DNA of 64,000 nucleotides from a virus (taxonomy: Duplodnaviria > Caudoviricetes): IMG/VR virus record IMGVR_UViG_3300025413_001239; one strand, 5' to 3'. The translations under genes were made by a program, and so were the position numbers. The notes beneath the pieces were generated by a model. It worked only from the letters and a program-made list of their open reading frames with translations, was not told where the DNA came from and searched no databases. Positions 4,129 through 36,448 of the stretch are shown here, in pieces (the first letter of the stretch is position 1; every line of letters starts with the position of its first letter).

Positions 4129-4270
4129 AAGATGTTTCCAGCAACTTAAAAATCTTAAACTGTTAAAAAAGGAAACGTGGGCGTTTTAGTATTGTTTCAA
4201 CCCTTTAAAATTTTTTTTATTTGAAACAACCTTCCGAACTGAGTTAGAAGTAAAATGCTCCTACATCTTG
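4129..4270 (+). ncRNA. CAGCAA-family structured RNA, copy A
   Basis: AAGATGT-ttc-CAGCAA ... ACATCTT-G terminal stem; internal GGGCGTTTTA/TAAAATGCTC and TTGTTTCAA/TTGAAACAA helices; CTGTTAA loop. Confidence 0.6.
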
Positions 4271-4281
4271 TTATAAGCTAT

Positions 4282-4313
4282 AAAAAAGAATCATAGTAAT
4301 ATGGTTCTTTTTT
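4282..4313 (+). terminator. intrinsic terminator
   Basis: AAAAAAGAATCATA...TATGGTTCTTTTTT hairpin with U tract. Confidence 0.75.
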
Positions 4314-4367
4314 AATTTATACTATTTACACTTTAAAATAAAAGTAGTATTTTTAATCAAAACATAT

Positions 4368-4556
4368 ATGATGACAGTTGTAGTTAAACCAATTGATGAA
4401 TACAAGAGTAAGAAATTTAAAGGTAAAGTACTAAGTGAATATATAGTTTATCAAATGATAAATGGTATGCCAATAAAAGCTGATACAGCATTAGGTGATA
4501 ACGCTAGAGATATTCTAATCGCTAAATACTTAAAAGAAAATAAAAATAAAAAATAA
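4368..4556 (+). CDS. hypothetical protein
   Basis: 62 aa ORF, stop overlaps the next start. Confidence 0.65.
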   Translation: MMTVVVKPIDEYKSKKFKGKVLSEYIVYQMINGMPIKADTALGDNARDILIAKYLKENKNKK

Positions 4557-4756
4557 TGAAAACACTTAAGAATTTAAAAAAAGGCACGTTTGTTAGAGTA
4601 TCAGACGTTGAAGCCGAATCAAGAGTTAAGCTAAAATCTGAATGGGCTTACGCACCAAAAAGCGAATGGAAAAAATCCGATAATCAACCTGAAGAAACAA
4701 CAGAAACTGTGCAAACGGTTGAATCTTCAACTAAAAAAACTAAAAAGAAAAAGTAA
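4556..4756 (+). CDS. hypothetical basic protein
   Basis: 66 aa coupled ORF. Confidence 0.65.
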   Translation: MKTLKNLKKGTFVRVSDVEAESRVKLKSEWAYAPKSEWKKSDNQPEETTETVQTVESSTKKTKKKK

Positions 4757-4758
4757 AA

Positions 4759-5091
4759 ATGGAAACAACAGAAAAATCGTACCCACTAGTGTTAGTGTTT
4801 TACGTTGATAGAGAAACAATGAAAAACTATGAATTAATGAAAGAATTTTCAGAATCGGTCAATTATATGATTGAAGCTAAAAATTTTAAAGTAATGGCAT
4901 TCTTTTTACCAACAGATGGTGAAGAAAGAATTGAATGTATCAATCCTTTAGTTGCACCAAAAGAACAAATGGATAAAGTCGATAAATTAATAACCGATAT
5001 TTCTAAGAATTTTGGTATTGGTGATGAAATAAATTTTGAAGAAATTCAATCAGGAGATGAACCAGAAAATACAAAACAAGAAAATCTATAA
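4759..5091 (+). CDS. hypothetical protein
   Basis: 110 aa ORF in operon context. Confidence 0.7.
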   Translation: METTEKSYPLVLVFYVDRETMKNYELMKEFSESVNYMIEAKNFKVMAFFLPTDGEERIECINPLVAPKEQMDKVDKLITDISKNFGIGDEINFEEIQSGDEPENTKQENL

Positions 5092-5269
5092 TATAGATTT
5101 AAATTTAAAACATTTATCAGCGGAAGAGCAAAAAGGAAAAATTGATGAACTTATAGATAACCTAAAAAATAGATTTGAAAAGATTGATAGTTCTAGATAT
5201 AATGCATTAACTGGCTCATCCATAAATGAGGATGTATTCTTTCCAAAAAGAGATATACCAAATAAGTAG
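5036..5269 (+). CDS. hypothetical protein
   Basis: 77 aa ORF overlapping the previous gene. Confidence 0.5.
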   Translation: MKKFNQEMNQKIQNKKIYNIDLNLKHLSAEEQKGKIDELIDNLKNRFEKIDSSRYNALTGSSINEDVFFPKRDIPNK

Positions 5270-5329
5270 TTTTACATCTTCAATCGAATAAACTCTTCCT
5301 TCGATTGAGGTACTGGCCCATACAATTGT

Positions 5330-5545
5330 ATGGACCATCTGGAGGATATTAAAAATATGACAAATCAAGAAAAAGCGGTTTTATATGACCAACTAATCCG
5401 TGAAAGCGATGCATTACAACGTGAGAATTCAAAATTAAAATCTGAGTATGTAACTAACATACCGCCAGAGGTTCAACAAAAAATTGATAAAAACAATAAA
5501 AGAATATCTATTCTAGTTGGTCAATTTGAAAATTTATTACGCTAA
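5330..5545 (+). CDS. hypothetical coiled-coil protein
   Basis: 71 aa heptad-rich ORF. Confidence 0.65.
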   Translation: MDHLEDIKNMTNQEKAVLYDQLIRESDALQRENSKLKSEYVTNIPPEVQQKIDKNNKRISILVGQFENLLR

Positions 5546-36043: not shown

Positions 36044-36091
36044 AACTAGTTCTTAAAGTCACTAAAAAAAAAATTTTTTAAAAATAATTCA

Positions 36092-36142
36092 AAAAAAACT
36101 TGACAATTCAAAAACTTTTCGTATATTTGCATATATTTATTA
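36092..36142 (+). promoter_or_regulatory. conserved promoter of tRNA operon 3
   Basis: TTGACA (36100)...TATATTTG (36122), then ATATTTATT. Confidence 0.85.
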
Positions 36143-36165
36143 ACAACAAGTAACAATTAAAAGAT

Positions 36166-36264
36166 ATGAAAAAGGCATATACATATTATCAACCGAAAAC
36201 GCAAGGGGGCAAAACTCCTAATAGGCTGGGTGTATCTTTTTCTGATGAAGATGATTGTAAGTAA
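36166..36264 (+). CDS. leader peptide 3, MKKAYTYYQPKTQGGKTPNRLGVSFSDEDDCK
   Basis: 32 aa ORF between promoter and terminator; residues 5-18 are only Y/T/Q/P/G/K. Confidence 0.8.
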   Translation: MKKAYTYYQPKTQGGKTPNRLGVSFSDEDDCK

Positions 36265-36284
36265 ACAATTAGTAAGATATAAGT

Positions 36285-36321
36285 AAACCCCAGTCTGATG
36301 AAAATTCAAACTGGGGTTTTT
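36285..36321 (+). terminator. attenuator terminator, tRNA operon 3
   Basis: AAACCCCAGT/ACTGGGGTTT stem plus T tract, 7 nt before tRNA-Pro. Confidence 0.9.
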
Positions 36322-36327
36322 AATTTT

Positions 36328-36402
36328 CGGGAAGTTCCACAGATGGCTATATGGGCTTGTTTTGGAGACAAGTGTTCGCTCGTTCGAATCGAGTTTTCCC
36401 GA
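36328..36402 (+). tRNA. tRNA-Pro(TGG)
   Basis: CGGGAAG/TTTCCCG; CTTGT-TTTGGAG-ACAAG. Confidence 0.85.
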
Positions 36403-36415
36403 CACAGATTGGTTG

Positions 36416-36448
36416 GTACCGTAGACAGCAAAAATAAGGAACGGTATA
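36416..36448 (+). ncRNA. possible minimal CAGCAA-family hairpin, copy F
   Basis: GTACCGT-aga-CAGCAA ... ACGGTAT; same spacing as the other copies. Confidence 0.35.

Follow-up and report, generated by a model that had tools for sequence, protein, structure and literature searches.

We analyzed a stretch of 64,000 nucleotides (nt) from a virus of the class Caudoviricetes (IMG/VR record IMGVR_UViG_3300025413_001239; here, the window), in which a split gene for a DUF2828/DUF7788 protein is accompanied by five short elements, copies A to E. All five lie on the plus strand and start at positions 4129 (A), 10029 (B), 10384 (C), 32044 (D), and 9843 (E), exactly where a preliminary description of the sequence had placed them. 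They share a handle that consists of a perfect Watson-Crick closing stem of 7 base pairs (bp), 3 nt plus CNGCAA inside the 5' strand, and an unpaired G at the 3' end; this arrangement, present in 5/5 copies, agrees with the consensus proposed earlier (stem, NNN, C(A/C/G)GCAA, complementary stem, G). Judged by comparative sequence evidence, the elements belong to a very large family of small RNAs, which appears to be undescribed, and these handle RNAs are most likely the partner RNAs of the DUF2828/DUF7788 protein.

The protein gene and the five elements

The N-terminal piece of the protein gene (1703..2242, plus strand) matches Pfam DUF2828 over profile positions 1-123 and PHROG 850 ("RNA-binding protein") over profile positions 1-140. 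It is 69% identical to residues 1-133 of the intact protein of locus L004 (L-numbers denote the loci gathered for comparison). The C-terminal piece (3021..4115, plus strand) contains the end of DUF2828 (profile positions 274-395) and a DUF7788 domain (E = 4e-52), a vWA domain with the MIDAS sequence DVSGSM, and is 68% identical to L004 residues 139-484. An insert of about 900 nt separates the pieces and carries a homing-endonuclease-like open reading frame (ORF) on the minus strand (2223..2948; PHROG 314 "homing endonuclease," E = 1e-13). Jointly, the two pieces cover the protein profile (1-140 plus 137-475), and the gene is uninterrupted in the relatives L004 (484 amino acids) and L014 (479 amino acids).

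At the sequence level, the protein matched only DUF2828 and DUF7788 in Pfam, with no TROVE match even at E <= 0.1, and a sequence search of the PDB recovered TROVE proteins only at marginal E values (0.12-0.36). For a fold search, we used an AlphaFold2 model of an intact relative (predicted local distance difference test score, 80.5). With Foldseek, the top 12 PDB matches were all Ro60/TROVE proteins aligned over their full length (E = 9e-9 to 2.5e-4; best template modeling scores, 0.59/0.62), among them those of Thermus phage phiLo, Xenopus, human, and Deinococcus. The top five matches among Swiss-Prot models were also Ro60 proteins, followed by telomerase p80. The MIDAS residues (DxSxS motif) are invariant. 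The earlier designation of this gene as Ro60-like thus holds at the level of predicted fold.

Copy A (4129..4270) is a 142-nt element directly 3' of the DUF2828 gene, with the handle, an A-rich linker, an internal hairpin, and a pseudoknotted 3' hairpin. It begins 13 nt past the stop codon at 4113-4115, its first base being the 14th after the stop, as had been noted before. Its supposed position inside a terminator had to be revised, since the copy lies between the stop codon and an A/U-rich, terminator-like hairpin followed by a T run (4286..4313, plus strand). This hairpin was read from the sequence; with fewer than three G-C pairs, it was not called as a terminator by the scanner.

Three of the copies form a unit with two tRNA genes. 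Upstream of it lies a strong promoter-like site (9767..9795, plus strand; TTGACA, a 17-nt spacer, and TATATT; 11/12 matches). There follow copy E (9843..10015), a 173-nt member with a perfect handle and an interior that appears structured when folded, and copy B (10029..10089), a minimal member of 61 nt. The two tRNA-Met genes (10214..10377, plus strand; found by ARAGORN and Rfam) appear to be cotranscribed with the elements. Copy C (10384..10437), a minimal member of 54 nt, comes last, and a terminator-like hairpin with a T run, also read from the sequence, closes the unit (10447..10476, plus strand). Copy D (32044..32127) is 84 nt long and begins 2 nt past a tRNA-Leu gene (31960-32042). It contains an anticodon-arm-like hairpin, with a plausible 7-nt loop, and a T arm, GGGTTCAAATCCC. 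None of the five copies was called as a tRNA cloverleaf by ARAGORN or by Rfam (RF00005).

The strict handle pattern ARRATSNNNNCNGCAA matched exactly copies A to E in the window. These five matches compare with 0.24 expected from shuffled sequences, in which no single shuffle gave more than 2. We also built a covariance model, R1, only from small members found in other genomes. It recovered copy C (45.1 bits; E = 3.7e-8), copy B (44.7 bits; E = 4.5e-8), and copy D (33.1 bits; E = 2.7e-5), matched copy A in its 5' part only (E = 0.03), and matched copy E weakly (E = 1.2), because the model comes from small members, which its 173-nt interior does not resemble. When copies were folded singly, minimum-free-energy z-scores were mostly unimpressive (-0.5 to -2.7, with copy D at -2.7). 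Thermodynamic folding says little in DNA this rich in A/T; the case rests on comparative evidence.

Several further candidates were discarded. A relaxed scan of the window (6 of 7 pairs and a 2- to 4-nt spacer) returned noise, with 71 matches on one strand and 82 on the other, and an R1 match at 53232-53276 (15 bits; E = 0.56) was treated as noise as well. A possible sixth, minimal copy at 36416..36447 (plus strand), suggested in the preliminary description, was rejected: it has a G-U pair in the stem, lacks the 3' G, and gave no R1 match at E <= 10.

Covariation and linkage across phages and bacteria

To place the elements in a wider family, we gathered 22 phage loci around homologues of the protein and 80 around the neighboring ClpP gene (102 loci; 918 kilobases [kb]). 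In a strict scan of these loci from related huge phages, 131 distinct elements lay on the strand of the gene, against 3 on the other. Within the clade, the elements fall into syntenic subtypes, with A-type elements after the protein gene, then E-, B-, and C-type elements near ClpP, and D-type elements with a T arm. The counterparts of copy E in relatives are syntenic members of 155 to 260 nt, of the AAGATGG GTT CTGCAA type, upstream of a B-type copy. Stem sequences are diverse (AAGATGT, AGAATCT, GGAATCA, TGAGTGG, TAGACGC, and others) and pairing is kept. In a 54-member alignment, all seven pairs vary on both sides; these members had been chosen for their pairing, and the true test lies in the controls for strand and position. 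Over hosts from many phyla, the CNGCAA hexamer does not change, and the stems covary.

Homologues of copy A lie directly 3' of the protein gene in relatives. The 29 A-type RNAs that we aligned have a common anatomy of handle, A-rich linker, internal hairpin, and 3' hairpin. In the 3' hairpin (CTTC...GAAG), the loop GRG(U/C) pairs with (G/A)CYC just 5' of the 3' strand of the terminal stem, which gives a pseudoknot; in copy A, this pairing joins the loop GAG to a CTC that immediately precedes the 3' strand. One pseudoknot pair (191-215 in the 29-sequence alignment A4) is G-C in 18 sequences and A-U in 10, and 94% of the alignment cells were paired in the A-type structure tested. The loop of the internal hairpin also seems, by eye, to pair downstream in several members (in the window, TTGTTTCAA with TTGAAACAA). 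One relative carries a natural deletion of most of its A-type RNA (L006:4040-4090), in which the sequence after the stop codon is fused to the 3' hairpin and the 3' end GGGTTTGAAGTAAACACCCCCGCATCTTG is left.

The linkage between elements and protein gene extends beyond this clade. At L019 and L020, where the protein is 37 to 41% identical to that of the window, tandem elements (about 5 and 2 or 3, respectively) lie directly upstream of the gene behind promoter-like sequence. A protein-profile scan, limited to one genome per species, then yielded 80 loci in assemblies labeled as bacterial (Ruminococcus, Oscillospiraceae, Treponema, Chloroflexi, and others), with proteins 35 to 53% identical. 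On the gene strand, the 1.2 kb upstream of the gene contained 214 strict elements, a density of 2.38 per kb; the control rate, taken within the gene or far downstream of it, was 0.07 per kb, and the opposite strand of the same upstream zone had 3 elements. Elements beside the gene were present at 72/80 of these loci. Copy number varies from 1 to 8 per locus, and the interiors are unrelated. In three bacterial genomes (4.5, 2.4, and 3.6 megabases), the sole R1 match at E <= 0.01 lay at the DUF2828 locus. RtcB directly adjoins the gene at the bacterial loci, and a protein with a WCX (WYL-type) domain is encoded upstream of the RNA array.

Proteins of the DUF2828/DUF7788 type also occur in 702 isolate phage records. 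R1 matched unannotated gaps beside the gene in Mycobacterium phage Breezona, Escherichia coli phage fjerdesal, and Bas63 (Escherichia phage JohannRWettstein). At L110, a contig labeled Chloroflexi, some 25 tRNA genes surround the DUF2828 gene, which has handle elements just upstream; the association of this protein with tRNA islands therefore extends beyond the huge-phage clade.

The interiors of some elements resemble parts of tRNAs. The Rfam tRNA model matched inside elements of several bacterial loci (L163, L162, L133, L119, L130, and L180), and the handle there therefore encloses a nearly complete tRNA. In an L172 element, the interior follows the YrlA order of T arm, stem, and D arm, and the YrlA model matched it (L172:2342-2401) with 38.4 bits (E = 7e-5; threshold, 69). 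Among small members from genomes of normal G+C content, 7-nt interior loops of the form YU...R., as in anticodon or T loops, numbered 47 against 0.9 expected; in the A/T-rich phage clade, the signal was weak (2 against 0.1 expected). Loop identity is not conserved between orthologues.

Of the four anticodon-like loops described in the window copies, only that of copy D was convincing. The loop CTGTTAA in copy A lacks a closing helix and falls within the A-rich linker, which is unstructured in homologues, and those of copies B and C are closed by weak U/A helices only and are not kept in sequence among orthologues. The T arm reported for copy D proved to be a true one and is kept in the orthologues L062:8422, L052:8568, L036:8544, and L050:7716. 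A further, unannotated tRNA look-alike lies between copy B and the tRNA-Met genes (10097..10165, plus strand). Its four-arm cloverleaf fold has a 6-bp acceptor-like stem, a D-like arm, a G/C-rich arm (7-nt loop, ACAUGGG), and a T-like arm (8-nt loop). Called by neither ARAGORN nor Rfam, it may be another tRNA mimic, although its membership in the family is uncertain.

Comparison with known small RNAs

Ro60 and its Y RNAs form a classic but poorly understood RNA-surveillance particle. Ro60 contacts GNCGAA/CGAA, a motif that canonical Y RNAs carry on the 5' side of a loop flanked by a terminal stem (PMC4201824, PMC12135203). Known sets of Ro60 (Rsr) and Y RNAs include YrlA and YrlB of the Salmonella rsr-yrlBA-rtcBA operon, Yrn1 of Deinococcus, and Yrl1 and Yrl2 of Thermus phage phiLo (PMC4201824, PMC7790460, PMC12135203; RF02553). 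The system described here resembles them in several ways. Its protein is predicted to be a Ro60-fold ring with a vWA/MIDAS domain, and the RNA genes adjoin the protein gene. The RNA ends pair as a terminal stem, just inside which the 5' strand bears a short, single-stranded motif that is conserved; the interior is a variable and sometimes tRNA-like module (in L172, a YrlA-type permuted T-arm/D-arm domain), and a genome may have several paralogous RNAs. The bacterial loci also share the layout of the Salmonella operon (PMC7790460), with RtcB adjacent, but are built from different parts: the protein has Pfam DUF2828 and DUF7788 instead of TROVE, and a WYL/WCX regulator takes the place of RtcR. 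The RNAs differ from Y RNAs in that the motif is CNGCAA rather than GNCGAA/CGAA and the stem is fixed at 7 bp and followed by one unpaired G.

We therefore call the family Y-RNA-like and do not count it among the YrlA or Y_RNA families. The earlier suggestion that the elements are Y-RNA analogues of DUF2828 proteins finds support in comparative genomics, namely, in the genomic linkage, the Ro60-like predicted fold, the RtcB context, and the tRNA-like and YrlA-like modules. We found the family neither in Rfam 15 nor in the literature searched; the association between the protein and RtcB may have been described before. No Rfam family reached its threshold on the window copies, in keeping with their first description as an unrecognized family.

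The nearest Rfam resemblance is to the Class I RNAs of dictyostelids (RF01414). These RNAs, regarded as unique to that group and lacking an explained function, are 42 to 65 nt long and encoded by many genes, start with AAG and end with CUGU, and have a covarying short terminal stem, an unpaired 11-nt motif CCUUACAGCAA that adjoins the 5' stem strand and ends in CAGCAA, and a variable interior (PMC7919456). They are transcribed from nuclear genes with a DUSE promoter, and the RNA recognition motif protein Rnp1A/CIBP is the sole direct binder shown (PMC7919456). End-to-end alignments of copies B and C to RF01414 scored 29.3 and 22.2 bits, respectively, below the gathering score of 41.5. The family consensus is close to the published features of Class I RNAs, sharing with them the stem, CAGCAA, an (A)AG start, and a YUG end. 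In contrast to Class I RNAs, the elements have a spacer shorter by one base, do not conserve CCUUA, and lie in phage operons with a bacterial-type promoter-like site rather than in nuclear genes with a DUSE promoter. The bacterial members of normal G+C content gave no RF01414 match at E <= 1, which speaks against a link to the amoeba RNAs; because these members are unmatched, part of the RF01414 score must stem from the A/T-rich interiors.

A pull-down with Class I RNA recovered an uncharacterized protein, DDB_G0281243 (bioRxiv 10.1101/2020.04.05.026054). No Dictyostelium entry was among the matches of our Swiss-Prot fold search, and a homology search gave close relatives only. The DUF2828/DUF7788 family does occur in eukaryotes, as plant-type "T31B5-30" entries were among the matches of a fold search against clusters. 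Conceivably, the CAGCAA handle marks one ancient RNA-protein particle of phages, bacteria, and eukaryotes, of which Class I RNAs would be eukaryotic members partnering a DUF2828/DUF7788 protein; we regard this idea as speculative and on balance doubtful. If it were true, DDB_G0281243 would be predicted to be a DUF2828/DUF7788 protein.

The tRNA cluster of phage T4 encodes small stable non-tRNA RNAs (species 1 and 2; rnaC/rnaD) of unknown function. By description alone, they resemble the present elements in being small non-tRNA RNAs within a phage tRNA operon. T4 is not known to have a DUF2828 gene.

Possible function, alternatives, and genome setting

In our view, it is probable that the five elements are Y-RNA-like small RNAs whose handle binds the DUF2828 ring protein and whose variable interior mimics parts of tRNAs. 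Each RNA would be modular. The constant handle (the 7-bp end helix, 3 nt and a single-stranded CNGCAA on the 5' side, and the unpaired G on the 3' side) would be the binding site of the DUF2828/DUF7788 protein, itself a predicted helical-repeat ring with a vWA/MIDAS domain and Ro60 fold. By analogy, it would parallel the terminal stem and 5'-strand motif (GGUCCGA, GNCGAA) through which Y RNAs bind Ro60. At one extreme, the interior is almost nothing (B and C); at the other are the whole or circularly permuted tRNA-like domains of relatives, and in between come copy D, with its anticodon-arm-like hairpin and T arm, and copy A, with its pseudoknotted domain. The interior may offer tRNA-like shapes to tRNA-recognizing enzymes, either repair enzymes such as RtcB or host defense nucleases. 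In the window phage, the RNAs would come from the 3' end of the protein gene's mRNA (A) and from tRNA operons (E, B, C, and D). Since the handle looks like an acceptor stem followed by a discriminator base, the tRNA-processing machinery probably excises them. During infection, they would likely serve to safeguard or mend the translation apparatus or to weaken a host defense.

A role of the protein in counterdefense is suggested by Bas63, whose host is E. coli. Bas63 gp130 counters the Ppl defense (an ATPase with a PHP domain) according to the PhageMaP preprint (PMC11482910), the only experiment on this protein family that we found in the literature. The preprint guessed that some annotated Bas63 tRNAs might be Y RNAs; the handle elements were not identified there (PMC11482910). 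The gp130 protein consists of DUF2828 and DUF7788, is 42% identical to the window protein, and is encoded directly upstream of a tRNA array in which R1 found four handle RNAs. Two "hypothetical protein" coding sequences on the minus strand of Bas63, bas63_0137 and bas63_0138, overlap two plus-strand handle-RNA matches (L186:10749-11023; MZ501086, 82748-83022) and are probably annotation artifacts.

Some observations weigh against a Y-RNA-like partnership with the protein. The gp130 protein alone, supplied from a plasmid or from T7 lacking handle RNAs, restores plaquing on the Ppl host (PMC11482910); its anti-Ppl activity thus does not strictly need the phage's own RNAs, which may add targeting, regulation, or a decoy function. 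The window's own DUF2828 gene is split by the homing-endonuclease insert. The handle contains no GNCGAA/CGAA (or GGUCCGA) motif, CNGCAA standing at the equivalent place, and the window copies gave no match to the YrlA (RF02553) or Y_RNA models. Finally, a figure of 100% paired stems is circular, as the members counted had been preselected for a paired stem. Because of this selection, it is the strand, position, and whole-genome controls that carry the weight.

Other explanations were weighed against the same data. The elements could be stand-alone tRNA decoys, with interiors that soak up host anticodon nucleases or other tRNA-targeting defenses and a handle that serves stability or processing rather than DUF2828 binding. 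Their location in tRNA operons, the enrichment of 7-nt tRNA-type loops in the family's interiors, and the members that enclose nearly whole tRNAs would all suit such decoys. We nevertheless consider them unlikely, since orthologous copies do not keep their loop sequences, the minimal members B and C have feeble A/U hairpins only, and it would be left unexplained why an invariant CNGCAA handle accompanies bacterial DUF2828 genes even at loci without tRNA arrays. At bacterial loci, the arrays of elements sit between a promoter and the gene start, and copy A is in a 3' untranslated region, as might be expected if they acted in cis, as leader or 3'-untranslated-region elements, to regulate the DUF2828/RtcB operon, for instance by serving as WYL-regulator targets or attenuators. 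Such regulation seems quite improbable given that huge phages have copies inside tRNA operons at distances of 6 to 28 kb from the gene, that 1 to 8 copies with unrelated interiors occur per locus, and that Pfam scans found no WYL regulators in the window.

It is highly improbable that the elements are decaying tRNA relics, or mere punctuation where RNase P, Z, or E processes tRNA operons, and that they do nothing as free RNAs. A 7-bp stem with an unpaired base does resemble an acceptor stem with its discriminator, copy D does begin 2 nt past a tRNA, and D-type members do keep a T arm. Yet compensatory changes would not be expected to persist in pseudogenes, and here CNGCAA is invariant while the stems covary across hosts from many phyla; moreover, arrays stand upstream of bacterial DUF2828 genes, and copy A stands behind a protein gene. 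As for chance similarity in A/T-rich DNA, the even scatter of the relaxed pattern over the two strands (71 and 82 matches) is what it would produce, but the strict pattern (5 against 0.24 expected), the strand asymmetry of 131 to 3, and the E values down to 4e-8 from an independent covariance model leave it with practically no credence.

If the handle RNAs are indeed partners of the DUF2828/DUF7788 protein, they would represent a second, much more widespread branch of the Ro60/Y-RNA particle (the protein occurs in 702 sequenced phage records and in numerous bacteria from the gut and the environment), with its own RNA recognition code and a modular presentation of tRNA-like shapes. They would provide a candidate RNA partner for a proven counterdefense protein, Bas63 gp130 (against Ppl), and would account for the unannotated "spacers" that occur in the tRNA islands of many phages. 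Tractable test systems would then be at hand in E. coli Felix O1-type phages, Mycobacterium smegmatis phages, and Listeria phage P100, and the amoeba Class I RNAs would gain a concrete hypothesis that can be tested.

The window itself looks like part of a huge phage. Its DNA has a G+C content of 30% and contains more than 20 tRNA genes (ARAGORN and Rfam) as well as genes for ClpP, DnaJ, and HNH endonucleases (Pfam). No isolate phage was found to be nearly identical to the window region; its relatives are contigs in IMG/VR, the longest of them 368 kb. RtcB was not found in the window by tblastn with a bacterial RtcB query. Promoter motifs of the TAnnTTTG type were noticed, by eye only, near 9795 and 10505; they would fit Bacteroidota. 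Downstream of ClpP, a tmRNA-like gene (8834-9186) scored 46.1 bits (E = 7.5e-16) against an Rfam gathering score of 47 and was not called by ARAGORN. Two Rfam tRNA matches were also missed by ARAGORN: one at 13423-13486 (30.7 bits), which overlaps the end of an HNH/helix-turn-helix ORF (12711-13481), and one at 11695-11795, whose 101-nt span suggests an insert or intron.

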